A DNA stretch of 64,000 bases from Naegleria gruberi (GCA_000004985.1 GG738911.1); one strand, 5' to 3'. Positions 1 to 55,115 are shown, numbered from the stretch's first letter. Program-made: numbers and translations. The notes: a model not told the origin generated them from the letters alone.

Positions 1-1953
1 AAATATGTGCATCTAGAGGAATTTCTGAATTAGAAACCATTCGAAGACGAATCATTTTCATCACCACTCCCTTATTCATCAATAAATCCTCAGAAATATT
101 TGAGGCAAGCAAATTAACATTTTCAGGAAATCTTTCCAAATACTGCAAGATGAATGGAATGGAAGAGAGTAATTCTCTGGAAGATTTAGAGATGGCTCTT
201 GGATCGTAGGAACAGGCAGCTAAAACCATTTCTGGACTGTTTCTGATATCAATGTGGAAATATTCGAAAATACCACCGATTGTTTTCAGTTTCTCCATGG
301 CATATTCCTTGTTATTTCTCTTGGAATCTGAAAGATAATTAATGATATGATAATAATCCGAATCAATTAATTTCAATAATTTGTGTTCAAATTCTGAATC
401 ATGGGAGCAAAGGTTTCTAATAATTTTGGGTGGAAACAATTTGATATTATCCACATCATTTTCAATTGCAAACTTTGCCCATTCTTCATTATTAATGATG
501 AAATCTGGTAATGCTCCACTAATCCCATGCTTGACCAGAAGATTCTTCATCATTTCCAAACTAATCTTATTGTGAGAACATGCATAGATAAACCAATTCT
601 TATAATCCACAGCTGCCTTCTCAATAAACATGTTATCATTCGAAATCTCATTAACTAGCTCAATATTATCAGGATTTACAATTCTGGTCGATGTTACAAA
701 AATCTGAAAAATTACGTCTTCATCTTCCAATAGCGGACTTTTACAATCTTTCATTCTATTGATCATATTTCCAATAACTGTTAATCCTGAACTCATGATT
801 GAATCGTCCTTTCTTAGCTCCTTTAGGGCATTCAAGATGAATTTCTTTTTTTGTAAATATTTTGAATGACAGAATTGTAAAGTTTCGACAACATTTAAGG
901 AAAGGCATGATTCAATGAGAGACTCATGTTGTAATTGAAATTCATCACTCACAAATTGGAGAGCATTGGCATGTACTTTCAATGCTGTTTCACTTGAGCT
1001 TTCGAATATATTAATTGGCGTTTTTGGAACAAATTCTAATAATCTTCCATCATATTTTACCGCTTCATGAGCTAGCTCTATTCTCTTTCTAACATGTTCT
1101 GGTAAATACTGATAGCCAGTACCACCACTCTTTCTAAATAAATTCAATAAGAAAGCAGACGAATAGAATGGAAACACTGAATAATCCAAATCCTTCCTAA
1201 AACAATAGACAAGTGCCTTTGGATTTTGCATCACTGCACTAGCAATTAACTGTTGGTCCTTCATATAAGAAGCTGGTAGGAATCGAATAATTAATCCATC
1301 TTGCTTGACTCCATCCAACAAAGTTGAAGCATCAATGGACGAAGGTGAAATAAACTCTAACACGTCGCCATTTCTTGAGATTATCTCTTCAATTTTGATA
1401 ATATTCCTCCTCTTATATCCATAAAGAATTTCTCCCTCACTCGTAAAGTATAAAATTAATTTGGGTTGTAAAATGATAAACTCATTTCTATACGAAACTG
1501 CTTGTTTTTCATTGAGTGATTTTTTCTGAATGAGCTCTTCAATGAGATTTCTCAATGCTATAAATTGATCAGGTGATTGATCTCTGAAATTTTTACAAGC
1601 ACTTTTTACAACATTTTCATTGGATTTCCATTTTTGGAGTTTGTGCAATTCACCTGGATTTTCTTCAACATATTTACACATGAGAATTTCATCTGTTTCG
1701 AATTGTGGAAACTTGCTTTGAATTTCTGAAAGCTTTTTGCCTTGTTCGATCATTTCAATAATCGCCAATCGTTGTGGATTTCCATGGTTTAGTTTTATTT
1801 CGGGAGCTTTCTTATTGTAATCTTTTTCTAAAAAGTGTTTTTGAAATAATTCTTTCCATGAAGATGCTAATGGTGATGAAGATTTCATCCCGATCGAGTA
1901 GAACCGTTTGCTTCCATTCAAACAAAGAATTGTAGCTTGATTTCCAATAAGTG
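1..1953 (-). CDS. DUF4116-like repeat protein (partial). The start codon is in the window at 1953..1951; the 3' end runs past the window edge.
   Basis: My own reverse-strand translation gives an uninterrupted frame from the ATG at 1953 to position 1. The ORF track does not list it because it is edge-truncated. It contains repeats such as 'LLDGVKQDGLIIRFLPASYMKDQQLIASAVMQNPKALVY', 'AHEAVKYDGRLLEFVPK' and 'AMEKLKTIGGIFEYFHIDIRNSPEMVLAACSYDPRAI', which match the repeat unit in genes 33287..34489 and 53259..55115. Translated by eye, so internal errors are possible. Confidence 0.55.
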
Positions 1954-2146
1954 ATCGGAACATTTTTTTGTGAAATGAAAATTCAATCAATTTTGCAAAA
2001 TTTCATAAGAAACTTTCAATCAATTTCATTAGAAGGTTACAATCTAATAGTTTTTCTATTCTATTATATTTAAATCCTTGTAAAATTGTCCAAAATTAGT
2101 CAATATAATTATTGTAAATATTATTCGAAAGTTTAAATTAAAAAAA
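1954..2146. promoter_or_regulatory. 193-bp AT-rich bidirectional promoter between the DUF4116 gene (minus) and the F-box gene (plus).
   Basis: Divergent start codons at 1953 (minus) and 2147 (plus). No ORF lies in this interval and it is very AT-rich. Confidence 0.4.
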
Positions 2147-3727: not shown

Positions 3728-3805
3728 AAAACAAACTAAACTAAATCATATATAATGCCTTCAAACTTCTATTTATCTGTGGGTGAAAACTACTATGAAA
3801 ACTTA

Positions 3806-5245: not shown

Positions 5246-5887
5246 ATTTACAATATATATTAAATTAAACTATTATTAACAAATAAATTATTATTATACA
5301 CTCTCTAGAGATTAAATAATACAATTGAAGAGAATCGCAACTCTATCCTCTTACTCGGTGCAGCACGAAAATCTTTGCAAATTGGAAAAAGGCTTTTAAT
5401 GCTGCTGGCTTTTTTTTAAACGACTACCAATCCTTTTCTAAATCGGAGAACGGAATTGGTATTGATGATTTTAATAATCTCACCAATTCCGAAGGAGTGA
5501 ATTGATTATTCTTCTCCAATCTCCAGCAAAGAAAGTATGATTGAGAGGAATTGAAAAGATGATCTAGATAACATTTGGATGACGAAAATTTGATTTTTGT
5601 TCAATGCCTAACAGTGAGAACCATTACAGAAGAAGAGAGATAAGAAAGGTTCGGTGTGGTTTTTATTAAGGAAGACAATTTGTCAATAGGTATAATTTGG
5701 AGGATTTGTAAATTTGCAACTGTTGAGAGATGATGATGAGGTTTTTTTATTATTAAGAAAAAATCTGTAAATCCCTACATGAGTCATTTCAAATTTTTGG
5801 AGGGAAAACTGTAAATAACATTTAGATAATAGTAATAATAACGGAAAAGAACTACATTCATATAGAACATCTAGGAATTTAGAGCAA

Positions 5888-6343
5888 ATGGAATCAAGGA
5901 AATTTGAATTAAAATCTAATTATTTAGATCTTACTTCGGAATTGTTACAAGATTTATTTAATTTATACACCAATGATAATCAGATATTTACCTATGTTTT
6001 TAAACGAGAGGAATTGGAGAAGGAGAGTACTCCATTGGAGAGGAAGGTTTCATACAGAGTTACCATCTCAAACCCAACCAAACAAAATCCCATTCCGAGT
6101 ATTGTATATTATATTAGAGTGATTTTCAGAGCTCCCTCATCCAAAGTATTGAAACACCTTGAAACATTACCATTCGTTCAACATGTTCAATTCTTTGTCG
6201 AGCACCGAAAGGAACCCTTTGAATTGGCCCTCAATATTGAGGAAGGTTTAATGAGCACCCCTAGAGAAACCATCAAGCAGGAATTTGATTTCATTGCCCT
6301 CATTAATCAATTCATGGGCAGAGAAATAAATCCCAAAATGTAA
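5888..6343 (+). CDS. Hypothetical 151-aa protein; no family recognised.
   Basis: Intact ATG-initiated ORF flanked by AT-rich intergenic DNA; no recognisable motifs. Confidence 0.35.
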   Translation: MESRKFELKSNYLDLTSELLQDLFNLYTNDNQIFTYVFKREELEKESTPLERKVSYRVTISNPTKQNPIPSIVYYIRVIFRAPSSKVLKHLETLPFVQHVQFFVEHRKEPFELALNIEEGLMSTPRETIKQEFDFIALINQFMGREINPKM

Positions 6344-7735: not shown

Positions 7736-7830
7736 TTCATTTGTCTTACATTTGCAGAGATTGTTGCATTGTTTAATCCAATTTAGAATAAGATCCAGTA
7801 ACATGATCTTTATTGAAAAATTTGATTTAA

Positions 7831-8733: not shown

Positions 8734-9118
8734 TTTTTTTTAGGTTATTAAAATTGTTCATTTTGAACTTTACAAATATTGTAAAGTCTGTGCAATGTTC
8801 TCCAAGGTCCTCATAATGCTTGGTACAAATGACTACAAATACCATGCACAATTTCCTTTTAAATAAATTGTCCAACAACAACTTGCAGCGCCTTAGTAAA
8901 AATTTGTCGCACACTTTTCACACACTTAAAAACAATTTCAAAAAAAACCCAAAATAGCTATGAAAATGCACCAAGAGATTGCCAACAAGTGGTTTGTTTC
9001 TTTTTTAACGGAATATTCATGATTTTTAACAACCGCTCTCTCTGAGAAGGGACCAAGTGTTAGCAGAGTGTGAAAATTTGCTCAATGAACGAGAATTCAT
9101 CATTCATTCCACTGATGA

Positions 9119-11208: not shown

Positions 11209-11287
11209 TTTTTTTAACAATTTTTAAATTAAATATTTTTTAAATACTTTAAATTTTTTTGTAATATTTATTTACAATTTTTAAATA

Positions 11288-22820: not shown

Positions 22821-24251
22821 TATATGAGCATTCATAGAGGAAGAGTAATTGGATCAATAATGATCAATAGTTCATAGCAAGATAGTATCATTGAACACGC
22901 ACACAGTGTTATTATTATAACACACCAGACTGAGTCTTAATAAACGTACCTTAATGTGAGCTTGAAATTACGACATTCCTTTACTCGAATTGGATAGGAC
23001 CTTTCCTGATATGATAAAAATTTTTATCTCTTGGACCTAGGCCTTAATAAGTACCCATAATCTATTCGCAGATTTTCTATTAACTGGGTCAGTTAGAATG
23101 CAACAATCATCAAGATGTATTTTTCTTCTCCTTAATAGGTAAATCAACGAGGAATCTTCTTCCTCAATCAGCAACCAAAATTATCAAAAACAAACAAGAC
23201 ACTCTTTTAACATTCAATCCAACAATCATTCCTCATAGTTTTCTAGTTTCTTTCTTATTATGAAGCGTATTAAACCGCATTAATATGTTAAATTCCAAAG
23301 CTCTAATAAGGTATTGCAAAGCTCCACTTGTTTACTTCCATACCAGTAAGGAATGAGCTAAATTGCAGACCTTAAACAACGAGCAATTGATCAACTCAAT
23401 GAGTGCGTGGGCGATACCATAAATCTTCTAAATAAGCAAAAGCTGTAAAGAACCGTAGCTTCTTTCTCTTAATTCAGAATCCTGTTGCTTTACATATCAG
23501 GCTTTGACAGATTGTGATGGTTGATACCTTACATTCAACACAAACAACAAGGCACAAACAATTCATATTGTTGTGTATTATTGGTAAACATAGTATGGGC
23601 CACAACACCTATCCAGGACAATTTGAAAAAAACACCCAAGACTAATAGATAAAAGCATCATCTTCATCATTGAGGAGGAGTAATTCATTTCCCTGCTGTG
23701 CGTCATATCAAAATTCATCAAAGAAGTTTGTGCTACTCAAGTGTGAAAAGCAGTTCTTGCCCAATTGAGACTCTATCATCAAATATCTACCCCAAAATTT
23801 AAAAAGCATTCTAGAGGTATCACTAGCCTTATTCATATAATTAATAGCTTCAATTGGTCCACCATTTAAGCGATATTGGCTTGTCTCATTCCTATATGAT
23901 TGTGTGCCTCTTCTCAATTACTACAACTTCAGATCACCATCAACATCATCATTCAATATAATTACAAGTCTTTACTGTAGTACAGTACACGCACACACAA
24001 GTTCTTGTTTCTATTCAAAATTTGCTTTCTCTTCCAAATCAACCCAACCTTACCAACAACAACAAGAGCAAAACTGTCTTGAGAGAAATTAATTGATAAT
24101 TCCCTTGCTGAAAAAAATATCCCCTCATCCTCCTCACTCTCCCAATCCAACGAAAAAAATTGTTGGGCGCCAAAATTTGAAAGCCTTTTCATTCATATTT
24201 GACCAACAAACGGCAAGTCTACAATTTCCATATTTATAATCAAATCCATAA

Positions 24252-27200
24252 ATGAACAGTCAGCAGATCCAAAAACCACAACCAATAAGGACCATCAACA
24301 ACAACAATAACACAAACAGCTCCACCAAAGGAGGGAGCTCTTTAAAATTTGTGGTTCCAAACAACCAGAACAACACTTCAACTATTGAGAACCAGTCCAC
24401 TAACAACATTTCTTCTGAAATACAGGGCTGCAGAAGTGGTGTGAATGGACATGGATGCAGAATGAACAATCCACCGTCCTCCCCTTCATCGTATGTTTCT
24501 TATGATACCAAAACACCATCATCATGTACGGTACATGTAACGTACTTGAATGCAACCTCTCCTTCATCACCCAATAACACAAATAACACATGTGTTGCAA
24601 CTACAACAACAATACAGAATACGAATGCTTCTAATGGCAGCACCGAATCATCATTTAAAAGATTCCCAATTTCTCAATCTCCCTCCGTTATTGATCCTGC
24701 AGTCACCATGCAAGATCACTATTTCCATACGACAATCAAGACTGAAAATGCACAATTTAAGAATAAGTGTCCTTCTGTTTCCCCTAATAATACTACACCT
24801 TCCACTACTCCAAATTCTTATTCTAATACCTTTCAAGATTCTTCTGTAAATCCCCCAAATGACAGCAAGCCAATAGCGACCAGTCAACTATCACATCCTT
24901 ACAATACCTCATACCATAATAATAGTAACCAATCCAGTCTTAACTCTCCATTTGAAACAACAACCCATGTTGAGTATCCGACCATGCAACATTTACCAAC
25001 CTTGTGTTCTATTAACCCTACACAAACAACACCAATATCAAGCAATTCCCAACAAGCACAAACAACACAGTCCTCTCATCTTCACGTTAATCATCAACAA
25101 CAAACACAACAAAAACAAATACCACCCAATAGTTATGCAGCACGCCTATTTTCCATGAATAACAATAATATTCATCATCATCATCAACATCATCACTCAA
25201 CAACAATTAATCCGAATAATATTATTAACAATAGTCAAAGTTCTCCGAATAGTAGTAGTGGTGGTGGTCAACTAATCACTTCAATGAATAATAATTCAAA
25301 TATAACCATGAATAGTCATCATCAACAACAACAACCACAAATAATGAAGAGTGATTTGGGAATGAATAATAACACATGTGGTAATTCATCGAATAATAAT
25401 AGTACGACTGCTTCCATGTCATCTTTACCCACTCCCCAACCCATTCCTATAATGAATAACAACAAGGGAACAACAACAATTAATCATCAACATGATAATT
25501 CCATGTTGCCAAGTCCTATAATGATGACAACCAGTTCCTTTCCTCAGTACAATTCCATGCCGATGAATGTAGTGGCAAATAATTCTACACACCAAATAAT
25601 CACAACAACTGTTAGTGCTACTACATGTGGAGAACGGCATGGTGATAACTCGCCCACAACATGTGGTCACCATGTACAATTATCATCATTATCCAATATT
25701 AATCCATCCAATTCCTCCTCTTCACTGTCATCGAGTATTTCCAGTGGCCATGTGAAAAGTAATACTACACCAAACAATATATTAGAATCCACCCCTTCCT
25801 CACATCAACAACAACAGCAGCAACATGATGGATACAGTAGCACCACAAGTAGCAGTAGCATGTCATTGAAAGCATGCTCTTCGTCGTCAATTCAACAACA
25901 AAATGATGACTTGTCAATTTCCAGCCAACAACCAGAAAGAAAAAAGAAGCGAGTCAACCCACCTCCACCAATAATGAATAGTACAACCGGTCACCATCTG
26001 CCTCCATTTATTCCCATTCAACCACATCCTTCTCTCACACCAACCCATAGAAATCCTCCATCTCCAAACATGCATTCACAGTACCAACAGTTTGCAAAGA
26101 TTGTTCCTTTTGGTGGCATGTCTCAAATGCCAAATGTCGTTGGTCAACCACAACCACCTCCACATGGCATGCCAGTTCCTTTCTATCATAGCTTCACACC
26201 ATTTCCAACACCGATCACACCAACAGGAATTCCTCCAAGAATGTCAAATAGTAATATCATGAATGCAACACCATCTCCAACAACTCCAGTTCCTCTTGCT
26301 TCCTCTCCACAAGGAGATGCAATTTCCTCATCGTCCAGTAATTCAGATGACAGTTCAAGTAATACTCCAACCAATAGCCAACAGCAAAGTGCATCAGCTT
26401 TTCCTACCTCTACTCCTTCTTCACACTACTCGTATGAGATTGTCATTCCAGGAGATTCATGCTCCACAATTATTAAATTGAATGTTGGGTTAACTCTTGA
26501 TAAATTTCATGATATCAGAATGAAAAAGACAATATTTGAAGCTTTCATTGAAAATCAGAAAACTGTCAATGATGGAAGGTCTGGAATTTCAAATGAAACT
26601 CAAAAGATTAGTACTTGGAGGTTGAAACAAGTAGAAATTATTAAGAATATTTGCTTTTTCAGATTTAAATTGTTGGATGATGGAAAACCAGAATCTCCCA
26701 CTGTTGAATTGGACAAAAATGGTTATGAAATTAATGGAAATGCTTTGGCAAAAGTTTGTGAAAGTGGTCCAAGTAGATTGGCTTTTTCACTCGATTCCTA
26801 TGGTAAAAGAGTTTCCAAGAGATTACACAAAGAAAAGCTCGTCACTTGTCCATTTTTGATCACGTTGACAAATGGTACAAAAGATTTTGTAAAGTGTGTT
26901 TGTGTCCATTTGTGTATTAATAAGAGACAAAAGAAAACAGTAATCACTAGAGCAGATTTTGACACGTTACTGCGAGATAAGAGTTATATGGTTTCTCTCA
27001 TTTCTATATACGCAAGTTCAACAAAGAAAAAACCACTTGACGAGGAGTCATTGTCTTCTGATGAGGATGAACAACCACTCAAAATATTAAAAAGGGATCC
27101 CTCTGGCAGTGCTCACACAGAGTTGAGACTTAAACATGGACCTGGCTATATGGTTTCAATTAATAATGTTACCTTGAGATATCCATTTGCAGGTGTTGAT

Positions 27201-31106: not shown

Positions 31107-33107
31107 CTAAAATTGCGTATTGTAATCTTCTGGATAATCATGTCCTGGTGGAATGTTTTTGCTATCATCGTCCTGGGATTTAAAGAGGAGAGTGTGGCTC
31201 TTTACATTACTTGCAATTGCTTTACATTCTTGATAGAAGAAAATGGAATGGAGCATGTGAAAATGAAAATAGAGATCTACCTCTTTGGTTGGCATTACTC
31301 GTCGATTTTCTTGGAGGAATTGAATGTAAGTACTCTTTTGGCCGATATCTGCCTGTGAAAGCTGGAATATATGCTCATCAAGGAATAATTCCAAATACTT
31401 GACTTGCTCTTTCACATCTTTGACTTGAGCCATTTCTTCTGAAAGACTATTATAGAAGAAGAGCTTGGGATTAAATGGATGGTGTGTTGGCAAGGCAATA
31501 CCATTTCCTTCTGAAGATAGTAAATGTAAATAGTCAATTTCAAGATCTTTTGGAAATTCACATGAGCTGAAATTGGCATGTTGATTCAAATTATTTCTAT
31601 TTTCAAGTATTTTTGTAAAATTCAAAGGAATTAAATCAGAGGGGCAATTACTGTAGTAATCATCCAATAGAATAAAGTGAAGTCCAATTAAAACATCATC
31701 TGGTGCAAAATCAAAACACTTGTGCTTTGATTCATTCAAGAAATGTTTCGCCTTTTCCATCATCTTTTCAAAATACCACACCTGATCTGGATCTTGGGAT
31801 AATATTAATAGTGAGTCATTCAATTTTTTTGTAATATCCTTTAAAAATTGAAGATAAAGAGGCAATCCTTTTTCAAAATTAATGGAAGAGCTCAGGAATG
31901 GTGAATAAATTATTGATTTAAAGAATGAACCCTCACTCTTCTCAAAAGGAATGCTGTTTGTTACATTTGCATAGGATGTCGTTTTTGAAATTGTTATAAT
32001 CTTTTTTCGTTTCTGTTCAATAAAACTCAACACTGTTTCGTTTTCTATCAACATTGCTGGATCAAGAATGAATAAAGTTTCTCCCGTTTTCTTGAAAGAT
32101 GATGCAGCTTGATACATTTCATACTTGTAATATTCAAGAAAAATCATTCCACTCAACAGATAAAATTCAATACACGATTCAGTTTGATGTATCATCATTA
32201 AATATTTCACATCTTTCGAATCTAAAATGATATTATTCTTTTTGAAAAAGTGAATCATTCTTCCTCCAAATATTTGACTGCCACCTTCTTGGTTGTAAAT
32301 AATTAGTTCATGAAATTGAGGAGAAACTGAGGCAACAACATTAATCAACTCGACACTATCTATAAATTCAAATATACTACACAACACATTCTCAACCTCA
32401 CATAAAATTTGAAATGGATTCGTCTTCTTTTTCGATTTGAAAAACGAAAAGAAATTAAATAATTTCGTTCGTTTTTTCCATGGCCTCATACTTCTGCGCC
32501 TTCCCTTCACGTTATTTACCAACATGGAAGGCAAACTAGTAGAAATAAATCGTTCCAAACAAGCCAATTTAAGTGCCTCATTATTATTTCCATATCCATA
32601 ACTTCCAACACCAACAATCATTCCATCAAAATTAAAAGCCACCTTTCCACAATTAAAATCCACAACTATTGATCGTCTACACAACTCCAAATTATCAATC
32701 ATTGCATTGCCATCCTCATCATAACTATAATTCACAAATTGATTAAGTGGATCAAATCTCAAGTCATCATCAGAATCTGATACTTTACATCGATTCGGAA
32801 CAAACCAACCATTAATTTCCTCCTCACCAATCCAAACAATAAACATTCTCCTAATTTTCAATGCATATTTCCCTTTCAATAGCAAATGATTGGAGAGAGA
32901 AATTCTCTCCGATCTGTAACCATAGTGATAGACAGTCAATTCATTATTAATTTGCTCGATGGATGATTTTTGAGAATTAATTTGATGAATATTGTTATCA
33001 TCATTGGTCAATCCAAGGATAATGGCAAGGACCTCGATTATGCTCTCCCTGGAAATTGTATTGAGTGCTGTGGATCCGTAATCAAAGCTTCCACCACGAC
33101 AAGGCAT
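31107..33107 (-). CDS. F-box-like protein (666 aa) with an N-terminal domain of unknown function.
   Basis: Internal F-box-like segment 'FQILCEVENVLCSIFEFIDSVELINVVASVSPQFHELI'. Otherwise unrecognised. Divergently paired with the DUF4116 gene at 33287. Confidence 0.5.
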   Translation of the reverse strand: MPCRGGSFDYGSTALNTISRESIIEVLAIILGLTNDDNNIHQINSQKSSIEQINNELTVYHYGYRSERISLSNHLLLKGKYALKIRRMFIVWIGEEEINGWFVPNRCKVSDSDDDLRFDPLNQFVNYSYDEDGNAMIDNLELCRRSIVVDFNCGKVAFNFDGMIVGVGSYGYGNNNEALKLACLERFISTSLPSMLVNNVKGRRRSMRPWKKRTKLFNFFSFFKSKKKTNPFQILCEVENVLCSIFEFIDSVELINVVASVSPQFHELIIYNQEGGSQIFGGRMIHFFKKNNIILDSKDVKYLMMIHQTESCIEFYLLSGMIFLEYYKYEMYQAASSFKKTGETLFILDPAMLIENETVLSFIEQKRKKIITISKTTSYANVTNSIPFEKSEGSFFKSIIYSPFLSSSINFEKGLPLYLQFLKDITKKLNDSLLILSQDPDQVWYFEKMMEKAKHFLNESKHKCFDFAPDDVLIGLHFILLDDYYSNCPSDLIPLNFTKILENRNNLNQHANFSSCEFPKDLEIDYLHLLSSEGNGIALPTHHPFNPKLFFYNSLSEEMAQVKDVKEQVKYLELFLDEHIFQLSQADIGQKSTYIQFLQENRRVMPTKEVDLYFHFHMLHSIFFYQECKAIASNVKSHTLLFKSQDDDSKNIPPGHDYPEDYNTQF

Positions 33108-33286
33108 TTTTTTTTAGTAAAGTTCTGTTTACAATAAAATTAGTATCTTTAATATTTAATATAGCCTTTTTGTAAACTTTACAATAAAGATTATTGATTG
33201 TTATTGGATGCACTTTTCAAATTGCAACTAGAATTATTTACAAGTTCCAAGTTCATTTGGTCAACTAAAGAAAATACCAAAAAAAA
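33108..33286. promoter_or_regulatory. 179-bp bidirectional promoter between the F-box-like gene (minus) and the DUF4116 gene (plus).
   Basis: Start codons at 33107 (minus) and 33287 (plus); AT-rich and ORF-free. Confidence 0.4.
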
Positions 33287-34489
33287 ATGCAAACACTTCT
33301 CTTAGATCAATCATTTCAATCCAATTTACTCTCCACTAAAATCAGAGACATTCCTCACCATTTAAAATACCAAACAATCATAGCTCCGATCGTCTCCGGA
33401 GGTTCCGAACATTTAAAGGAAACCATTAAATTTCTCGATACAAGACGAGATTGGTTTACAATTCTCAAATTTATGAATGAACACAATTCGGGTCATAATC
33501 CATTCAGCAATGTTTCCATCAGTTCATTGGGATTTAAATATTCACTAAGTAGCCGCCATGAATTATTTGAAATTTACATCAATTTGGGAAAGGAATTGAA
33601 ATTTGATTCAAATTTTATATTTCAAATAGTTGGAATTAGTCCTGGATTTATTTATAATAATTCTAATGAAGTTATTAGAAATGATAGAGAAGTTGTGTTG
33701 AGATCTGTTAAGGGAGTTGGTTCTATGCTTAGTATTGCTTCTGATAGATTGAAAGATGACAGAGAAATAGTTATGGCAGCTGTCAAGCAAGATGGTGGAA
33801 GTTTAAGATATGCAAATGATAGATTTAAGAGTGATAGAGAACTTGTCCTGTCAGCAGTCAAATCAAGTGGTCATGCTCTTCAATCCGTTCATGAATCATT
33901 AAGGAATGATAGGGAAATTGTAGAGTTGGCAATTTCACATTGTTGGTCATTTCTAGGGAGTGCAGGCGAGGAAATGAAAAACGACAGAGAAATTGTAATG
34001 AAGGCCGTAATGAGAAATGAACAAGGAAGTGCCTTTCAATATGCTAGCAGAGAATTGAAACTAGATAAGAAGTTTGTTTTGGAGGTTGTCAGAAAAAGTA
34101 AGGGATTTGCACTTGAATATGCTCTTGAAGAATTAATTAAGGATAGGGAATTTCTTGTTGAAATATTGGAAATTCCTGAAAGATCTTCCACGGCTATATA
34201 TTCTATAGCGAGATTTATTAAGGATGATAGAGATTTGATATTACTAACTGCTAAATATGATGGATTTATAATCAAATATATTAATGAGGAGTTTAAGAAG
34301 GATAAGGAGATTGTATTTGAAGCTGTCAGTCAAAATATCAATGTTTTTCAACATATTGACAAGTCATTAAGGGATGACAAGGAATTTGTGTTGAGATTGG
34401 CAAGGAAAAATTCAAAGATTATTCAATTTTTGACCAAATCAATGAAGAAAGATCATGAATTTATGTCTCAAATCAATAAATTGAAATAG
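33287..34489 (+). CDS. DUF4116-like repeat protein (400 aa).
   Basis: At least eight tandem 36-38-aa repeats of the type 'NDREVVLRSVKGVGSMLSIASDRLKDDREIVMAAVKQDGGSLRYANDRFKSDRELVLSAVKSSGHALQSVHESLRNDREIVELAIS…'. Confidence 0.65.
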   Translation: MQTLLLDQSFQSNLLSTKIRDIPHHLKYQTIIAPIVSGGSEHLKETIKFLDTRRDWFTILKFMNEHNSGHNPFSNVSISSLGFKYSLSSRHELFEIYINLGKELKFDSNFIFQIVGISPGFIYNNSNEVIRNDREVVLRSVKGVGSMLSIASDRLKDDREIVMAAVKQDGGSLRYANDRFKSDRELVLSAVKSSGHALQSVHESLRNDREIVELAISHCWSFLGSAGEEMKNDREIVMKAVMRNEQGSAFQYASRELKLDKKFVLEVVRKSKGFALEYALEELIKDREFLVEILEIPERSSTAIYSIARFIKDDRDLILLTAKYDGFIIKYINEEFKKDKEIVFEAVSQNINVFQHIDKSLRDDKEFVLRLARKNSKIIQFLTKSMKKDHEFMSQINKLK

Positions 34490-34513
34490 ATTGATTAGTA
34501 AACTTGGTCAAAA

Positions 34514-39800: not shown

Positions 39801-42116
39801 GATTTATTTTCTTAATAATTCAATATAGATATTTATCTGGTGTTAAGAAACAAATCAAACTAATGCAAGAAAATGTATCCAAGAATGAAATTGGTAAATT
39901 ATTCCATGATTTGGGAAAGAAAGTAAGCGATGATACTCATTTGAGGGCTTCCAGGAATGCTTTATTGACACCAAAAAACTTGTTTTCTTTGTTTGGATTT
40001 TTAACCATTGTAATTGTTTCAATTTGTTGTGGTATTTACTTGAGTGAAACTTTAGGAAATTCTACATACAGTTTTGAATCATACGTTACCATGGAAGATG
40101 GTTTTGATGCCATGTCATACTTACAGCATACCACATTTGCAATTTCAGAGGTATTTATTCATGCTGTGAATGCAAAGTTCAATGTCAGTGAGAGCAGTTA
40201 TGCTCTTCTTGGGAATAGTGATATTGAACTAATGGCCACTGGATTTACAACTACTGTGAAATCATTGAGATACTATTGGAATTTATGTATGTATGGATCG
40301 GCTGTAAAGGCCTATGAAACCCTTGTTGTGGGAATGTTTACTGAAACAGATGACATGATAAGAGGAGAGGTTAATTGTGATATCGAGGCTTCTTTAAAGA
40401 CTTTTGAAAAAATCAAATCCTCTGGAAATTCTACAACTTATTGTAAAATGGGTGTTGACTACATGGTACAAGATATTATTCTAAAATGTTCTAATTTGAA
40501 AGAGGATATCAAGACCTTACCGCAACTGAGCAATTTCAAATCTACTAGCTTGAATTTTTTCAATGAGTTTTATAGTATTGCCTATCTTACCAATGCAGTG
40601 TCTATGAAATTGATAGATTTCTCAAATGTTTTTGCTGTTAAATCCGCCACTCCAAGAACAGAACAAATGATTTCTTTAGCGATTATTGCCTTGATTTTGA
40701 GTTCCACCTTTTTCGGTATAATGTACTATTCTATTGATACCTATTGGAAAGATTCTCATATTGCAAGATCATTATTTAACTATCTTTCAATTGATACATT
40801 GGAATCCAATGAAATAATTAAGAATTACGTTCTCTATCACACCACAAATGATGGTATTAAGAGAAAGAAGAAGAGCACTGAAGAATCCAAAGTGAATGCC
40901 ATTTTGAATGCTGCAGTTGATGGAGTTGTTGTTTGTGATGCTCAATTCTGGGTAAAGAGTTTCAACCCAGCTGCTTCCAGAATGTTTGGAGCTCAACAAG
41001 AAGAGTTTGTGAATAAGCCAATCTATTGTTTGATGACTCCTTGGTTCCATGACGATGTTCGTAAATTCCTGAATGCTTCCAAGAACAATACTAGTCTCAA
41101 TGACGCCAAATCAGCATCATTTGAAGTGGATTGTGTCAGAACAAATCTTTCAACATTCTCAGCAAGAATTAACCTTTTCATTACCGTTTTTGATAAGAAA
41201 CCAATTGTTACATGTTTCATTAAGGATATTACTTCAGAGAAGAAGCACAACTCACTTCTTCAAGAAGAAAGAAAGCACTCTGAAGATCTCTTGCTTAACA
41301 TTTTACCAAGTGCTGTTGCCACAAAATTGAAAGGAGGAGCCAGCTTGATTGCTGAGAAATTCCCAGATGTAACATGTTTCTTCTCTGATATGGTTGGATT
41401 TACGGCATTATCTTCTAAAATGGGTCCTAATGACCTAGTTCAAATGTTGAATACTATTGTTATTGGATTTGATGATTTAATGGATGTTTATCACCTTGAA
41501 AAGATTAAAACTATTGGTGATGCCTATTTCTGTGCAGGGTATGTTGTTTATATTAATTAATATATACTAATAATTATTCAGAGGTCTTCATGATTTGAAT
41601 GCCCAATCTGATCACCCTGAGAGAACTTTGAGATTTGCTATTGATACATTTGGAGTTATTAGAAATTATAACTTGAAATTTAGAAGAAACAATTTGAAGG
41701 AACAAATTAACATTAGAATTGGTATTAATACTGGGCCAGTTGTTGCTGGTGTCATTGGACGTAAGAAGTTTGCCTACGATTTGTGGGGTGACTCTATTAA
41801 TACAGCCTCTAGAATGGAATCAAATTCCAAGCCAGGAAGAATTCAAGTTTCCAGATCTACTTATGAAAGAGTTTTTGATTTAGGACTTGTTTTTGAGGAA
41901 AGAAAAATTGAAGTGAAAGGAAAGGGAATGTGTCAAACCTATTTGTTGGATGCTAAGCACCATACATCTGCTATAATTACAGAAGAGGATGTAAAAAACT
42001 CTGCTGATAAAGAAACCAAATCTGAGATTGCTGCACACACCGCTCCAATTGATAATCACGAATTGGAGATTGAGTTAGTACCAAAAACACCAAAAGGTGA
42101 AGTTGAAAATCAATAA
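36833..42116 (+). CDS. Polytopic membrane PAS-domain class III nucleotidyl cyclase (adenylyl-cyclase-type specificity residues), 1746 aa, two exons: join(36833..41538, 41582..42116).
   Basis: Cyclase catalytic core 'FPDVTCFFSDMVGFTALSS…KIKTIGDAYFCAG|GLHD…RIGINTGPVVAGVIGRKKFAYDLWGDSINTASRMES', split by a 43-nt intron (41539..41581, GTATGT…TACTAAT…CAG, phase 2). Upstream PAS-like 'ILNAAVDGVVVCDAQFWVKSFNPAASRMFGAQQEEFVNKPIYCLMTP'. Many hydrophobic helices in the N-terminal 1300 aa. The Lys (KIKTIGD) and Asp (YDLWG) at substrate-specifying positions predict ATP. Confidence 0.75.
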
Positions 42117-42293
42117 ATTATTAGGATTTTATTTCTATTAGAATTAAAATACTAACCAATTGAAGAACAACCACTCTCATCATCGAATTTAACATTTACA
42201 ATTTCAAAATTGATTAATGATTTTTATTAAATTGTGTCACCTCAAATTGCTTTAGTCTTTTTATGTCCTCTGCATCAAAATGAAATGCTTCGT

Positions 42294-43766
42294 CTACTTT
42301 TCTCTTCTNNNNNNNNNNNNNNNNNNNNNNNNNNNNNNNNNNNNNNNNNNNNNNNNNNNNNNNNNNNNNNNNNNNNNNNNNNNNNNNNNNNNNNNNNNNN
42401 NNNNNNNNNNNNNNNNNNNNNNNNNNNNNNNNNNNNNNNNNNNNNNNNNNNNNNNNNNNNNNNNNNNNNNNNNNNNNNNNNNNNNNNNNNNNNNNNNNNN
42501 NNNNNNNNNNNNNNNNNNNNNNNNNNNNNNNNNNNNNNNNNNNNNNNNNNNNNNNNNNNNNNNNNNNNNNNNNNNNNNNNNNNNNNNNNNNNNNNNNNNN
42601 NNNNNNNNNNNNNNNNNNNNNNNNNNNNNNNNNNNNNNNNNNNNNNNNNNNNNNNNNNNNNNNNNNNNNNNNNNNNNNNNNNNNNNNNNNNNNNNNNNNN
42701 NNNNNNNNNNNNNNNNNNNNNNNNNNNNNNNNNNNNNNNNNNNNNNNNNNNNNNNNNNNNNNNNNNNNNNNNNNNNNNATTGATAGAGGGATTCTTTGGT
42801 AATGTTCACATTTGTTTGAGGCGAATTGGATTGATTAGGAATATTATTAACATGTGATGTAAAATCTCCCAAAGGAACTTGTTTTTGTTGGAATAATTGT
42901 TGTGGATTATTTTGAGGGGATTGGTTGTAAACCATTTGATTCTGGTTCACCTTAAAGTTATCCATGTTCATTTGTTGAGATGGTTTTTGTGGAGAGAATG
43001 TTCCTTGATTGAAGAATTGAGTGTCTGGAGAATGTGAATGTTGCATCGAACCATTGGGTATGTTCTTGTCCATTGTTGCAGATTGGTAATTGGTATTATT
43101 TTGGCCATTACCGTTGGTGCTATTGTTAAGCATCATGTTCATGTTATTTCCATTAGATGGAACTTTTTGATTCATTTGATTCATCACTTGTGTTTGATTC
43201 ATTCTTGTCGGAGATGCCATCATTTGATTAAAGTTCTGTTGTTGTGGTTGCTTTTGGAGGAATGTATTATTTGGATTGTTATTACTGGTGTTTGCATTAG
43301 ATCCTCCTCCATTATTTAAAGAGGTAGTAGGTAAGGTATTATGGAAATCAAAGGATTGATATTGTTGTTGCGGAGTTAACTCATCATTATATGATTGGAA
43401 GAGTCTATCATTTTCTAAATTAACCTTATTCGAGACCGAGGCATGGATCATTTGTTGTTGATGAATGTTATTCATCATGTTTTGGGAAGCCTTTTGGTAG
43501 TGGTTTTGAGGAGAGTGGAGATTATTCATTACGTTGTTAGAATTACTCGTATAGTTGTTGGTGTTATTCATGTTCGATAAATGGAGATTGTTATTAATAT
43601 TGTTATTTGTATTATTATTGTTTTGGAGGTGATGATGATAGGAGGATGAAGAACCTTGTTGATGTTGTTGTTGAGACGTGTTATTGTTCGAGGAGGAGCT
43701 ACTAAGGGATAATTGAGGTGGTAGTTTTAAGAGTGGATTATGATGACCTTGTTCCATCGAAGACAT
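42294..43766 (-). CDS. Gln/Asn-rich low-complexity protein, interrupted by the assembly gap (42309..42778).
   Basis: ORF with an ATG at 43766. Poly-N/Q/H composition. 470 N's fall inside the reading frame, so length and frame across the gap are unknowable. Confidence 0.35.
   Translation of the reverse strand: MSSMEQGHHNPLLKLPPQLSLSSSSSNNNTSQQQHQQGSSSSYHHHLQNNNNTNNNINNNLHLSNMNNTNNYTSNSNNVMNNLHSPQNHYQKASQNMMNNIHQQQMIHASVSNKVNLENDRLFQSYNDELTPQQQYQSFDFHNTLPTTSLNNGGGSNANTSNNNPNNTFLQKQPQQQNFNQMMASPTRMNQTQVMNQMNQKVPSNGNNMNMMLNNSTNGNGQNNTNYQSATMDKNIPNGSMQHSHSPDTQFFNQGTFSPQKPSQQMNMDNFKVNQNQMVYNQSPQNNPQQLFQQKQVPLGDFTSHVNNIPNQSNSPQTNVNITKESLYQXXXXXXXXXXXXXXXXXXXXXXXXXXXXXXXXXXXXXXXXXXXXXXXXXXXXXXXXXXXXXXXXXXXXXXXXXXXXXXXXXXXXXXXXXXXXXXXXXXXXXXXXXXXXXXXXXXXXXXXXXXXXXXXXXXXXXXXXXXXXXXXXXXXXXXXXXXXXXRREK
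42309..42778. other. Assembly gap (470 N).
   Basis: A run of n characters in the sequence. Confidence 1.
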
Positions 43767-45131
43767 TTTATTTGAAAAAGGAGAGAAACTTGCAATTTCC
43801 TTGTGAGAGTTTATTATCTTTTAAAAGAGGCTGTTGGACCTCTGGCGAGTTTTAATGTGTTTTGGGGGATTTAAGCAAACTCTGAATAGAAATTTTTGGT
43901 CCTAAACATTGTATAAGGAACTCTCTTAGTGAAGATACTTTTTTAGCCAGGTACGTGCCTATAATAGACAGTTTCTTCACCCAAAAGGAGGCTTAAGTAC
44001 ATTGTTTACCGCTTGTATTCGGCGAAAACAAAGGAACGATTTTGCTCACATTGATAAAAACAAACTCCTTGCCTTATTGATCAACATTTCAGCAAATAAA
44101 TTTAAGAAGGTTCTATTAAGTATTTAAAGAAGGTTCTTTATTTCAATATCAATATTTTCATTCATGAGCATTTAACAACCTTCCTCCGTTCTTCTCCAAT
44201 GATTATGAGGAGAAATAAATGCATCATATCTCTATTTACAACAACGACCTTTTAGGATGACCTTAATTAGCAAGCTTAATAACAAACTAATGCAAAAAGT
44301 TCATCAATAGGTCGCCGTTGATCATAGTCTAAGCGTAAACTAACTCATATCATGTGTGTTAATCAGTTTTTGATTACATGAAGGCTCAGGAAAGTGAAAC
44401 ATAAACGTGGCCTTAATTGGAAGCTGTACAATTGATAGATTATAAAGCACGTCATTTCTCCTTTGTTAATATCACCAAATGCATTCTCACAATATTCAAT
44501 TTGAAAAACAACTCAATCTTCCGCTTCTCATCACCACCAACATATTATCAAGTAACCTTACACTTATCATATTGAGACAACTCTACCTTGATGAATTAAC
44601 AATTATTCAAAGATTCGGCAGACAAGGATACCAAATGGGGAAAGTCATGCGAATTTGCCGAACCTGAAAAAAGCGCGCTGGTCCAACACGTTGTGGTTTT
44701 TGTTTGGTGCTAAGAGGGTGGGGCCACACAGAAGGACAGAGATGCCGCACTCTTTTCACTCATTTGGCATTGTGTGTACATAAAACAATTAAATTATTTA
44801 CAACAATGTGCTTCTCAGCTGCTGGTAGTAGTACAGTGCTCGCCTTTGTTTAGATGCAGAATTTTCCTTTGAGAAAAAAATCACCACAACAAGACAAGGA
44901 AAAGCACCACTCTCTTTCCTTAGAATAATTTTGATTAACTAACCAAATAGTAGTAACAATTCTCGGTTATATTGAACAAGATAACAACAACATCATCAAT
45001 AGCACACTTTGTAAAATAGGCTCTTGATCTCTAATATTCTCCATCATTCTCTCTATTAATAGCTTTAGTAATATTACTTCTCAAGGAGGAGAGAAAGAAA
45101 TCAAAATCGAGTATATATACATTGAAAAAAC

Positions 45132-48670: not shown

Positions 48671-48841
48671 TTTTTTTTTAATTTTAAATTTTCTGATTTT
48701 TTTTAATGGATGGCAAACAAAAATAGAATTGACAACTAAAAAGGAGGTGGATGTGTGAAATTGGATGTGAAACTGCTTTTATTGGATTTCTAATTTAATT
48801 GAAGAAAGTAAATGGAATGTAAGTTGAAAAATTGATTGTTT

Positions 48842-51115: not shown

Positions 51116-51371
51116 GCAACAGGCGAGTAAACTTGTGTTCTTTGTGTTGATTGGTAGGCAACAAAAGTAAGCAGACAAGATGTTTTTTTTTTGTTTGTTG
51201 AATCTTTTCTAATATCCAAAGGATTCGTTTTTTGATATTCGAAATGTGAAGATGCAGTAAAATTAATATCTATTTCGTTCCTTGATTGTGAATGACCGAT
51301 TTCGGTAACCTCGCAAGATTTTTACAAAATTTTCAAGATTTTTCTCTCTTCTTCTTGAAAAATTATTGAAC

Positions 51372-53213
51372 TCATTGAATTTCACATTTGGATGTTTTTT
51401 TGGTGGTAATAATTTCCTTGTCATTGGAATTTACATTTTCATTCTTGAAGGTTTGTTTCATTTCAGAGTGTCTTCCACTTGATAGAATGGAGAAGGGAGG
51501 AGTCCTTTCGAATAGAATATAACTTGGATAGCAATAGGTCATGTAAGGCTGATCTGGTTGATGGCTTGCTAGAATATAAAACGAAACATAAATCTTCTCA
51601 TTGGAAAGGAGAATAAATTTCACATTATTCAATCCACCTTCAAATTGGTTCTTATTTTGACAAATTTGTTCAGTAATAGATTGATGAATGGTTTCAGATC
51701 CAGTTTCGGATAAAACTGGAATAAGGTTTCCAGTTGCATTATATATCCTACTGATGTGAATGACACAGTTATGGAGTAGATACTCTTCTATCAAATTAGT
51801 TGATGAGCTACTCGATGAAATTTCTGCATATGAAAACCCTAAATATTTCAGATTAGTCAACTTTTTCAAAGAAATATTTTGGTAGGATGATAAAATAGAT
51901 AAATATTCCAAACTAATCATTTGCTCAATCGGTGATAGATCATCATTTTCACCAGGATAAATAGTTAACTTTCTCAATTGAAGTCCACTAAGAAGTGAAA
52001 TATCAAGAAAATGGATTGAGCGTGCTGTTGTAATGTTCAATTCTTCCAATTCTTTACACTGAAATTCAACATTTGATTGTAATTTGAAATCACACTTATC
52101 CAAAATCAAACTTTTCAATTTCCTAATTCTTGTAAAAAAATCAATTCCACTATTGAAAAAGCAACAAAAACATTTTACAAATTCCAAAGAGGGAAATGAG
52201 TTTGAGGCACCTTCTAAATTTCTCACTCGAAGCAATTCCAATCGTTTAAGGTGATCAAACTTGTTTCCCATTAAGAAATCCTTGTTCAAAAATTGGCAAC
52301 TAATTGGTGGTACTGTGGAATAGGTTCCAATTTTCAATTCCCTTAACGATGGATTCAACAATAGAGGATTAGGAAGTTGATTAATTTCCAATCTTGATAA
52401 GTTACTGATATAATCTAATTGTAATTGATTGACAATGGCTGTGCCCTCAAATCTGAGAAATAATTCTTGGCAATTTGAAGATACATTCCTAAAGAAATCA
52501 ACTAGAAAATTTGGATCCTTTTCAATTTCTTCCAATATTGTTGTTTCGATTGGAATTTCCAATATTAATTTTTGTAATTTCTTCATTTGAAGAATTAACT
52601 TTTCAATTCGTTTCACATGAGCGGATTTGATCTGGCTCTGACTTGATGAAGAGAAATGAGGAACATGGATAGAGAATTCGAATATCTTCAATTGTGTGAA
52701 TTTGGTTTGTTCCAATTCAGTCAAAATCAAATCCAAACTATTATGGAAAGTTGTGAAACCTATTGAAAGTGAGTGCAAATTATTGAAATTGGAAAGGAAT
52801 GAGGATTGTACTGGTATGGGACTATTTAATCCAAAGTAAACGGTCAATTTCAAATTCCACACTAAATTACATTTGCACCTTTCGAATATTTTTGTAATAA
52901 ATTCGAAAGGTTGAATTTCAAACATGTACAAATTAACTGAAATCGTCTCAATTTTTCCAATATTTTCCTCCATAAATTTACTTGAAGATTCAACTGTATT
53001 TTCATCACTTTTCATATCTCGTAGTAATAAATTCGCCTCTCGTATCCAAAAAAAATTCGAATAATTCTTGTGAAAATTAACTTGTTCGAAAGTAATGTAA
53101 TTCTTCACAAATGATAGAAATTTACAAGTTAATCGTAGATTAGACCTTGTATCCCGATCACTGTATCCAAGTATGAGAATGAACATTTCTTTGGGAAGTG
53201 ATAGTAGAGACAT
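51372..53213 (-). CDS. F-box / LRR-like protein (613 aa).
   Basis: N-terminal F-box 'LSLPKEMFILILGYSDRDTRSNLRLTCKFLSFV', then many L-x-x-L-x-L repeats. Divergently paired with the DUF4116 gene at 53259. Confidence 0.6.
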   Translation of the reverse strand: MSLLSLPKEMFILILGYSDRDTRSNLRLTCKFLSFVKNYITFEQVNFHKNYSNFFWIREANLLLRDMKSDENTVESSSKFMEENIGKIETISVNLYMFEIQPFEFITKIFERCKCNLVWNLKLTVYFGLNSPIPVQSSFLSNFNNLHSLSIGFTTFHNSLDLILTELEQTKFTQLKIFEFSIHVPHFSSSSQSQIKSAHVKRIEKLILQMKKLQKLILEIPIETTILEEIEKDPNFLVDFFRNVSSNCQELFLRFEGTAIVNQLQLDYISNLSRLEINQLPNPLLLNPSLRELKIGTYSTVPPISCQFLNKDFLMGNKFDHLKRLELLRVRNLEGASNSFPSLEFVKCFCCFFNSGIDFFTRIRKLKSLILDKCDFKLQSNVEFQCKELEELNITTARSIHFLDISLLSGLQLRKLTIYPGENDDLSPIEQMISLEYLSILSSYQNISLKKLTNLKYLGFSYAEISSSSSSTNLIEEYLLHNCVIHISRIYNATGNLIPVLSETGSETIHQSITEQICQNKNQFEGGLNNVKFILLSNEKIYVSFYILASHQPDQPYMTYCYPSYILFERTPPFSILSSGRHSEMKQTFKNENVNSNDKEIITTKKTSKCEIQ

Positions 53214-53258
53214 TTTTTTCTATTAGAAACTTTACAATTAAACTAATCTCTAAAAAAA
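53214..53258. promoter_or_regulatory. 45-bp bidirectional core promoter between the F-box gene (minus) and the DUF4116 gene (plus).
   Basis: Start codons at 53213 (minus) and 53259 (plus), separated only by 'ttttttctattagaaactttacaattaaactaatctctaaaaaaa'. Confidence 0.45.
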
Positions 53259-55115
53259 ATGCAAATGGATAAAACTGAGTCTATTCACTTGGATCTAACA
53301 ATCGGATCCAATTTACTCATACAAAAATATCATCGAGAGAAGAAACTAATTCGTTTCATCACACAACATTCCACAATTTATTCGAAACTTGTGCCTGATG
53401 ATCTTCCTTTAATCATACAAATCCTCCGAACCAGTGAAGCCTTTCCCGATTTATTTGTTGGTAGATTTAAAGGGAGTGGTATGTTTCGTATATCAACTCC
53501 CAACTTTCCAATACCAGATCAATGGATGAAACACAGACAAGTAGCTCTCTTTCTAGCTAAAAAAGGATTGTTATTTCAACAGGAAACTTTGAATTACGAA
53601 CCCTATCTAACAGATAAAGAAATCATGATGGAGGCATGCTCAAACAACTCTCATTATCTTTCGAATTTTCCACTTGGAACAGATGGAGAATTTATGCGAA
53701 AGTTATGTAAACTGAATGGAACCATGTTGGGCTATGCCAGTAAAGAATTGAAGAAGGATAAGGAATTGGTATTGGAGGCAGTTCGTTCAACACCTGAAGC
53801 TTTCCATTTTTGTGATGAGTCGTTCAATAAGGATAATACAGTTGTATACGAAGCTGCCAAACATGCATCATTTAATATAACCAAAATTGATGGAGAAATG
53901 TTCAATAGGAGGAAGTTTGTTTTGGCACTGATGGAATATCGTCCTGAAATATTTATTCACCTTCCATATGAACTCAAAACAGATCCTAAAGTGTTAAATT
54001 TGGCGCCTTGCAAGAATTTGAAAGTTTTGAGCTTGGTGCCACCTTCCTATCAGAAAGATAGAGATTTTGTGTTGAAATGTGTGAGAAATAATGGTTTGGA
54101 TTTAGAGTTTGCCCATCCATCACTGAGAAAGGACAGGGAAGTTGTTATGGAAGCTGTCAAACAAAATGGACTGGCTCTAGAATTTTCATCTGAAATGTTA
54201 AGAAATCAAGATAGAGAAATAGTTTATGAGGCTGTTAAAAGTAATGGAAATGCAATAGAATTCACTAGTGATCAATTCAAAAGGGATTTAGAACTAGCTC
54301 GGATGGCAGTTATGAAAAACCATGAATCTTTTATGCTTGTGGACAGTTCAATCAAGCAAGATAAGAAACTGATTCAAAGCTTTTTGGAAGAAACTGGTTA
54401 CTACTATTATATTGCATCAAATGAATTGAAAACTTCACTTCATGATACCATTAGAGGGGATAGAGATTTACTGGGATTGGCAATTTTAAAAGACGAAACA
54501 TTACTTGAAGAGCCATTGCCAGATTTTGTGGACGAAGAATTCATGTTAAATGCAGTGAGAAATGGCTTTAGTTTGGACTGTGTTCCTCAGAAATTCAAAC
54601 AAAACGAAGAGATTATTCTCGAATCGATCAGACATGCGAGCATTAATTTCAAATATGTCGATTCTTCTCTAGCTTCCAATAGAGATTTTGTTCTAAAGTG
54701 TGTGAAAGCAAGTGGTTTTGTACTTTTTTACACTGATGAAAAATTCAGAATGGATAGGGAAATAATATTGGAAACATTGAAAGCAACAACTTCAGGATCA
54801 ATTTCATTGGACTGGAGTGAATCTCATCCTTTTAATTCAGATAGAGAAATTTTATTGGAATGTGTGAGAGGAAGTGGTGATCTTCCCTCTCAAGCAGATT
54901 CGAATATTATGAATGACCCTGAATTTATTGTGGAATGTGTAAAAATTGGAAAGGATAGAAACAAAGATATTACCGACTATTTGGAGAAAGTAAGAAATAC
55001 CATATTGAGTAATGAGAGTTTATTCTTGAAACTGGTCAAAATTAATCCCAAAATTGTCGAATCCTTAAATTTAGATTTAGATTTCCTCACCTTGGCTTTC
55101 AACTCTTTAACATGA
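53259..55115 (+). CDS. DUF4116-like repeat protein (618 aa).
   Basis: At least ten tandem repeats, e.g. 'LKKDKELVLEAVRSTPEAFHFCDESFNKDNTVVYEAAKHAS', 'LRKDREVVMEAVKQNGLALEFSSEMLRNQDREIVYEAVKSNGNAIEFTSDQFKRDLELARMAVMKNHESF'. Confidence 0.65.
   Translation: MQMDKTESIHLDLTIGSNLLIQKYHREKKLIRFITQHSTIYSKLVPDDLPLIIQILRTSEAFPDLFVGRFKGSGMFRISTPNFPIPDQWMKHRQVALFLAKKGLLFQQETLNYEPYLTDKEIMMEACSNNSHYLSNFPLGTDGEFMRKLCKLNGTMLGYASKELKKDKELVLEAVRSTPEAFHFCDESFNKDNTVVYEAAKHASFNITKIDGEMFNRRKFVLALMEYRPEIFIHLPYELKTDPKVLNLAPCKNLKVLSLVPPSYQKDRDFVLKCVRNNGLDLEFAHPSLRKDREVVMEAVKQNGLALEFSSEMLRNQDREIVYEAVKSNGNAIEFTSDQFKRDLELARMAVMKNHESFMLVDSSIKQDKKLIQSFLEETGYYYYIASNELKTSLHDTIRGDRDLLGLAILKDETLLEEPLPDFVDEEFMLNAVRNGFSLDCVPQKFKQNEEIILESIRHASINFKYVDSSLASNRDFVLKCVKASGFVLFYTDEKFRMDREIILETLKATTSGSISLDWSESHPFNSDREILLECVRGSGDLPSQADSNIMNDPEFIVECVKIGKDRNKDITDYLEKVRNTILSNESLFLKLVKINPKIVESLNLDLDFLTLAFNSLT

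Follow-up and report, generated by a model that had tools for sequence, protein, structure and literature searches.

Three divergent F-box/DUF4116 gene pairs in Naegleria gruberi

A 64,000-nucleotide stretch of gene-dense nuclear DNA from Naegleria gruberi (GCA_000004985.1 GG738911.1), hereafter the window, carries three gene pairs in which a predicted F-box gene (F1, F2, or F3) lies head-to-head with a gene encoding a DUF4116-repeat protein (D1, D2, or D3). Mapping of the open reading frames (ORFs) confirmed that the members of each pair occupy opposite strands and read away from each other, as the first-pass annotation of this DNA had stated (Table 1). Unrelated conserved genes fill the 27 kb and 17 kb between successive pairs, and the pairs do not form one tandem array.

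For pair 1, the start of D1 had been placed at 1953 and the gap set at 193 bp. Position 1953 is not a start codon, and translation from there meets a stop after 11 codons. The open D1 frame extends from 2002 to 2 with 1963 as its first ATG, and the distance to the F1 start is therefore 183 bp. The earlier gaps of 179 bp for pair 2 and 45 bp for pair 3 were recovered with the same values. P0001, the public counterpart of D2, is annotated as a 'predicted protein' of N. gruberi on a 261,328-bp scaffold, and F2 and D2 carry consecutive numbers (D2VYM4/D2VYM5, NAEGRDRAFT_74172/74173).

Table 1. Genes and spacers of the three divergent pairs, and the unpaired DUF4116 ORF, in the window
Feature	Position	Strand	Description
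D1, DUF4116-repeat gene	2..1963	-	N-terminal 654 codons in window, ORF exits left edge; PF13475 69.6 bits
Pair 1 divergent spacer	1964..2146		183 bp, 18% GC; TTTACAA(T)-type promoter-proximal motifs
F1, predicted F-box + LRR protein, 526 aa	2147..3727	+	Public D2VYL0 / XP_002670819
F2, 666 aa, predicted member of a heterolobosean F-box family	31107..33107	-	Identical to public model
Pair 2 divergent spacer	33108..33286		179 bp, 22% GC; four TTTACAA copies
D2, DUF4116-repeat protein, 400 aa (D2VYM5)	33287..34489	+	100% identical to P0001; PF13475 250.7 bits
F3, 613-aa orphan LRR-type protein	51372..53213	-	Weak F-box-like motif at residues 3-32
Pair 3 divergent spacer	53214..53258		45 bp, 16% GC; contains AACTTTACAAT
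D3, DUF4116-repeat protein, 618-codon ORF	53259..55115	+	PF13475 276.0 bits
D4, short DUF4116 ORF	57897..58271	-	No F-box partner; PF13475 94.8 bits

DUF4116-repeat proteins

The DUF4116 assignments were assessed with the PF13475 profile at its curated cutoff of 24.9 bits and by the presence of tandem copies. All four D proteins passed the cutoff, including the fourth DUF4116 ORF reported earlier, and seven PF13475 stretches were recognized in D2 and nine in D3. A phmmer census found no further DUF4116 ORF in the window. Neither an F-box nor a BTB domain was detected at E ≤ 1 in the N-termini of D1–D3 or of other N. gruberi DUF4116 proteins.

The AlphaFold2 model of D2 had a mean predicted local distance difference test (pLDDT) score of 84, residues ~125–400 being confidently predicted as an all-helical alpha-solenoid, and its top structural matches were HEAT/ARM proteins and designed helical repeats. 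Similar to the ARM/HEAT-type alpha-solenoid repeat proteins, the predicted D2 is thus an all-helical solenoid, and the model makes the DUF4116 array a predicted scaffold of a typical protein-binding type. DUF4116 was also modelled as an alpha-solenoid by an earlier trRosetta study (PMC8078820), and one preprint puts PF13475 among 'ubiquitination' domains, with no evidence given. The domain is found in protists, bacteria, and metagenomes; one high-scoring homologue, P0008, is bacterial and uninformative for pairing.

The unpaired D4 is located immediately downstream of an EF1A-like GTPase ORF (58397..59443, minus strand), and an EF1A-like GTPase gene followed by a same-strand DUF4116 gene also occurs in N. 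lovaniensis (L005:8236-11629, plus strand). The two GTPases share 34% identity over 132 aa only, and are candidate orthologues at most.

F-box evidence for F1, F2, and F3

F-box proteins serve SCF (cullin-1) ubiquitin ligases as substrate receptors. The three F proteins were compared with the Pfam models F-box (PF00646, curated cutoff 20.5 bits) and F-box-like (PF12937, curated cutoff 24.3 bits), and with a heterolobosean F-box hidden Markov model (HMM), which was built here without any window sequence and run on 1,432 ORF segments. None of the three alone attained Pfam's curated F-box cutoff.

In F1, both Pfam models matched residues 92–131 below their cutoffs (F-box 19.1 bits, F-box-like 19.5 bits), and the heterolobosean HMM gave 26 bits (E = 4e-7 over the 1,432 segments). 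Three leucine-rich repeat (LRR) families, LRR_At5g56370, LRR_4, and LRR_R13L1, scored above their Pfam cutoffs in F1, its best match in the PDB was FBXL2, and its UniRef name is 'F-box domain-containing protein'.

F2 itself had no Pfam match and no PDB match at E ≤ 10, with either the sequence alone or the F2 profile, and its AlphaFold2 model, computed from a three-sequence alignment, was unusable (mean pLDDT 34.5). A word-indexed search gave only two homologues; when their profile was used in a full HMMER search, an F2 family emerged whose members come from N. gruberi, N. lovaniensis, and Willaertia magna. Seven of the 14 aligned family members match the Pfam F-box (best E = 1.8e-6), and these matches fall on the most conserved block of the family, which corresponds to residues ~235–282 of F2 (VLCSIFEFIDSVELINVVASVSPQFHELIIY in F2); two N. 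gruberi members, P0127 and P0131, bear the name F-box protein. The heterolobosean HMM scored F2 at 48.6 bits, but it had been trained on paralogues of F2. Because the F-box matches of the family lie on an aligned conserved block, F2 is classified as a probable divergent F-box protein with a predicted mid-protein F-box and a conserved C-terminal domain, and not as an LRR protein.

The C-terminal domain of the F2 family has no Pfam model and carries the motifs DDVLIGLHxxLLD and VDLxFHFHMLHP (homologues P0122, P0123, and P0127-P0134). A Met-Pro-Cys start is seen in seven of the 14 aligned members, and also in the LRR gene beside the W. magna fusion gene described below.

The F-box evidence for F3 was weak. 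Residues 3–32 matched F-box with 14.8 bits and F-box-like with 14.4 bits (library E ~0.03), so both models pointed to the extreme N-terminus, directly before LRR-like repeats, whose internalin-like character was indicated by a PDB phmmer match (E = 9e-4). F3 was not detected by the heterolobosean HMM, and no homologues were found from which a profile could be built, leaving F3 an orphan. The public F3 model (XP_002670888, 404 aa) starts at Met210 of the 613-codon ORF, and the F-box-like motif is held by the 209 codons that it misses (52587-53213, minus strand). As these codons are open, and 207 of the 209 are identical in P0126, a 614-aa protein of a metagenome contig, the full 613-codon ORF was taken as the F3 gene, and the public model is probably truncated. 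The layout of F3 would tentatively fit an FBXL-type protein.

LRRs C-terminal to the F-box, the arrangement of FBXL proteins, were hence seen in F1, weakly in F3, and not in F2. The earlier description of all three as F-box (LRR-like) genes probably holds for F1, given its near-cutoff matches, its match to the HMM built here, and its UniRef name; it probably holds for F2 through the family and without the LRR part, and is weak for F3.

Pairing within the window exceeds chance

The ORFs of the window were scanned with Pfam, at E ≤ 1 where an ORF had no Pfam match and at E ≤ 0.01 where it had other Pfam domains only, and all were covered by the heterolobosean F-box HMM; apart from the F genes, no ORF showed an F-box signal. 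Counted at the ORF level, the window holds 32 genes, with 8 of the 31 junctions divergent. The labels were then permuted while the 32 positions, the orientations, and the 8 divergent junctions were kept fixed. Three pairs, given three F and four D genes, had a P value of 9e-5; the value was 0.003 for two pairs given two F genes, and 0.065 for one pair given one F gene. The recurrent divergent pairing of the two families therefore exceeds chance within the window, whether three or two pairs are counted, and the F-box/DUF4116 association is non-random there unless the pairs are not independent events.

A further argument, that the three shortest divergent gaps are those between D and F genes, was not relied on, because several other gene starts are uncertain; the ORFs concerned begin with TTG, so upstream exons probably precede them.

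Intergenic spacers and the promoter-proximal motif

All three spacers have a GC content of 16–22%, and each contains TTTACAAT or AACTTTACAA. The TTTACAA(T)/AACTTTACAA motif occurs in 24 copies in the window, compared with 8.75 expected (2–3-fold over-represented), and its 7-mer core TTTACAA in 75 copies, with about two-fold enrichment in non-ORF DNA. Many unrelated genes have TTTACAA(T) in the ~150 bp upstream of them; sites of the motif include 5247-5254, 8769-8785, 11271-11278, 33128-33185, and 53228-53238, and it recurs in a W. magna spacer (L010:14943-15085). The motif has the appearance of a promoter-proximal element that is generic in Heterolobosea. A pair-specific regulatory motif was considered and rejected, as the motif is over-represented across the window and stands upstream of unrelated genes. 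The spacer motif supports promoter function and not pair-specific regulation, and spacers of 45–183 bp make shared bidirectional promoters plausible.

Relationships among the three pairs

The pairs had been regarded as three paralogous copies that arose by segmental duplication. Pairwise BLASTP comparison found no similarity among F1, F2, and F3 (E > 1), and D1, D2, and D3 were mutually only 24–27% identical, which is repeat-level similarity, D2 and D3 being no closer to each other than either is to DUF4116 proteins on other scaffolds. The F proteins show two architectures: an F-box with LRRs, and an F-box in mid-protein with another conserved domain C-terminal to it. The flanking genes also differ between the three pairs.

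The paralogues of D2 and F2 led in the same direction. The order of N. gruberi neighbours outside the window was taken from the UniProt/GenBank accession order, by which P0002 (D2VYP4 / NAEGRDRAFT_74193), a paralogue 92% identical to D2, lies on the same scaffold a few genes to the right of the window. P0002 is on the minus strand by GenBank numbering, and its first ~12 residues differ from those of D2, indicating a duplication breakpoint at the 5′ end of the gene. A 76% paralogue, P0003 (D2VEH2), lies on another scaffold. No F2 counterpart was found for either of them; the best F2 paralogue, 35% identical, is on a third scaffold beside two more F2-family gene models (D2VGC4-6). D2-type genes have thus been duplicated without F2, and congruent paralogy, that is, partners duplicating together, was not observed. 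With the 92% paralogue beyond the right edge and four DUF4116 genes in the window, DUF4116 genes are locally concentrated. These comparisons did not bear out the proposed segmental copying: the three pairs are not recent copies of one another, and are either anciently diverged or independently formed neighbourhoods.

Gene neighbourhoods and domain fusions in other Heterolobosea

Seven DUF4116 gene contexts were sampled, covering N. fowleri (L002, L004), N. lovaniensis (L005, L006), and an N. gruberi-like metagenome contig (L008). No head-to-head F-box/DUF4116 pair was found at L001, L002, L004, L005, L006, or L008, and the nearest N. lovaniensis homologue of F2 adjoins an ICAT-domain gene, not a DUF4116 gene. 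The pairing had been called conserved, and this did not hold at that homologue or in the seven contexts. At N. lovaniensis L006, an F-box ORF lies two genes upstream of the DUF4116 gene.

The two families were instead found combined within single proteins. N. fowleri P0102 (FDP41_006641) is a predicted F-box+DUF4116 fusion (F-box 27.8 bits, DUF4116 246.7 bits), and P0026 (FDP41_006030) of the same species a BTB+DUF4116 fusion (BTB 33.1 bits, DUF4116 444 bits). A further F-box+DUF4116 fusion of 851 aa (F-box 21.5 bits, DUF4116 56.6 bits) is encoded at W. magna L010 (12387-14942), a locus that was fetched via the F2 family and not via DUF4116. There, the fusion gene is tail-to-tail with an F2-family gene and head-to-head with an LRR gene that weakly matches the LRR family of F1, and a clear F-box gene (29.8 bits) follows 2.4 kb further on. 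A search for a first exon of this LRR gene, in which an F-box might lie, turned up no single GT..AG intron with the length expected. These predicted fusions independently show that DUF4116 and the adaptor domains of cullin-RING ligases are linked in evolution.

Two clusters were noted among these loci. At N. fowleri L004:1480-14651, four or five DUF4116 ORFs, some of them fragmented, are clustered with a BTB-DUF4116 fusion, a BTB-only gene, and a small ankyrin gene, so DUF4116 genes cluster in N. fowleri too, with BTB in place of F-box. At W. magna L010:16357-17332 (plus strand), two ORFs repeat, in inverted orientation, the N- and C-terminal parts of the 851-aa fusion gene, and this partial inverted duplicate suggests a recent rearrangement in the cluster.

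Other contents of the window

The window has ~33% GC, long ORFs cover ~80% of it, and several ORFs exactly match N. gruberi proteins. Its Pfam content is that of an ordinary free-living protist: a maspardin-like hydrolase, a pseudouridine synthase, a RING finger protein, a kinase, an epimerase, an RNA ligase, a KH-Smr protein, a PAS/cyclase protein, a Wntless-like protein, CNNM, a GT10 fucosyltransferase, the EF1A-like GTPase, and a trypsin. Strong compositional skew was noted in two places. At positions 24001-26000 the GC skew is -0.375, over a 1059-aa ORF (24252-27431), and over 42001-44000 the GC content is 0.26 and the skew +0.28, across an ORF on the minus strand (42294-43766). Neither ORF has a Pfam match, and both probably encode low-complexity proteins.

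Discussion

The search of the literature found neither a head-to-head F-box/DUF4116 pairing nor any DUF4116 function described. The pairs resemble several known systems in part. Similar to FBXL receptors (for example human FBXL2/SKP2 and the plant FBD/LRR At5g56370 family), F1 combines an F-box-like motif with downstream LRRs above the LRR_At5g56370 cutoff, and F3 is laid out in the same way but scores lower. In contrast to them, F1 and F3 have F-box scores below the Pfam cutoffs and are predicted receptors only, no orthologues were found outside Heterolobosea, and FBXL genes have not been described with a recurrent divergent DUF4116 neighbour. The heterolobosean F-box/BTB-DUF4116 fusions combine the same two domain families, with DUF4116 at the position of the target-binding repeats, whereas in the window each domain has a gene of its own, the two genes being on opposite strands. 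As no F-box or BTB domain was detected at the N-terminus of D1–D3, and both F1 and F3 carry their own LRRs, the pairs in the window are not a simple split of a fused gene.

Lineage-specific F-box gene clusters are known from plants and nematodes. The heterolobosean genes are likewise fast-evolving and species-restricted with variable C-termini (W. magna L010 and the tandem D2VGC4-6), but the F-box genes of the window are dispersed among conserved genes, each beside a member of another family. With the bidirectional-promoter pairs of compact eukaryotic genomes, the three pairs share closely spaced starts, AT-rich spacers, and a generic motif; it is the recurrence of the same two families, not the geometry, that stands out.

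The reading that we favour, with a confidence somewhat short of even, has three elements. The DUF4116 array in Heterolobosea would act as a protein-binding solenoid alongside the adaptors of cullin-RING ligases, as the domain fusions suggest, since in the fused proteins DUF4116 stands where LRR, WD40, or Kelch repeats stand in classical receptors. The separate F-box and DUF4116 genes of the window would share a bidirectional promoter and probably be co-expressed, which is judged from their geometry. A direct partnership is possible, the DUF4116 protein being perhaps a co-adaptor, a regulator, or a dedicated substrate of the F-box protein encoded beside it, and this last step is speculative.

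Several observations weigh against this reading. The three pairs fall within a single 55-kb region and may therefore not have arisen independently, and D4 in the same window has no F-box gene beside it. The pairing was unseen at the sampled relatives, including the nearest N. lovaniensis F2 homologue, D2 has been copied without F2, and the spacer motif is not specific to the pairs. The F-box of F3 is weakly indicated and was missed by the heterolobosean HMM, F1 and F3 need no obvious partner because they have an LRR target-binding domain of their own, and literature searches on the loci and locus tags returned no expression or interaction data. In a stronger form of the proposal, the stand-alone DUF4116 protein would be a dedicated co-receptor, inhibitor, or obligate substrate of its head-to-head F-box protein; each pair would thereby form an operon-like SCF targeting module of two genes driven by a 45–183-bp bidirectional promoter, the 'split' counterpart of the fused receptors, and target recognition by its repeats would be the first function of DUF4116. 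This form we consider rather unlikely.

A neutral origin of the neighbourhoods is a serious possibility, although we do not prefer it. Two lineage-expanded, fast-evolving repeat families would gather in plastic regions of heterolobosean genomes, the pairs would be a historical accident, and the F-box/BTB fusions would mark DUF4116 as no more than a generic interaction repeat. About a quarter of the junctions in a compact genome are head-to-head in any case, as are 8 of 31 in the window, F-box ORFs are frequent bystanders (4 in ~75 non-query genes of the fetched heterolobosean loci), bacterial DUF4116 exists without an F-box partner, and the absence of the pairing from other species and other DUF4116 genes, the duplication of D2 without F2, and the generic promoter motif agree with it as well. 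What it explains poorly is the within-window permutation result, the spacing of the pairs amid unrelated conserved genes rather than in a single tandem array, the two F-box architectures, by which no single duplication can account for all three pairs, and the renewed neighbourhood of F-box and DUF4116 genes in W. magna.

The mechanism put forward in the first-pass annotation, one ancestral head-to-head unit copied three times by segmental duplication, could draw on the F-box + LRR architecture common to F1 and F3, on the local duplication of DUF4116, which is real (the 92% D2 paralogue on the same scaffold), and on a short common promoter that would keep a pair together. It appears very unlikely, as the three F proteins lack detectable similarity, F2 differs in architecture and belongs to its own family with members on other scaffolds, the D proteins have diverged to repeat-level identity with D2–D3 no closer than to DUF4116 elsewhere in the genome, the flanking genes differ, and the only recent duplications detected (D2/P0002/P0003) left F2 behind. 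Least probable of all is an over-reading of the F genes, in which only F1 is a true F-box protein, F2 and F3 are merely leucine-rich helices, and the pattern shrinks to one pair, for which the permutation gives P = 0.065. None of the F proteins attains the curated Pfam cutoffs, F2 has no Pfam or PDB match, and F3 is an orphan that escaped the heterolobosean HMM, all of which would be expected from such an error. It is opposed by the aligned F-box matches in half of the F2-family members, by the F-box names of two members of that family, by the agreement of both F-box models on the N-terminus of F3 before its LRRs, the classical FBXL layout, and by the lack of even a weak F-box match in any other ORF of the window.

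The finding is less striking than first proposed, because the part that described an amplified, conserved module fails. On the evidence of its homologues, F2 defines a predicted F-box family of Heterolobosea whose C-terminal domain is unnamed. DUF4116 is widespread, has no assigned function, and has almost no literature; the heterolobosean F-box/BTB fusions, together with the N. gruberi neighbours, suggest that it may serve cullin-RING ubiquitin ligases as a target-binding solenoid. If the members of the pairs are not co-expressed and interacting, they would represent merely the local neighbourhood of two expanded gene families; if they are, they would be a rare case of a eukaryotic E3 receptor and its partner being kept together by a common promoter.

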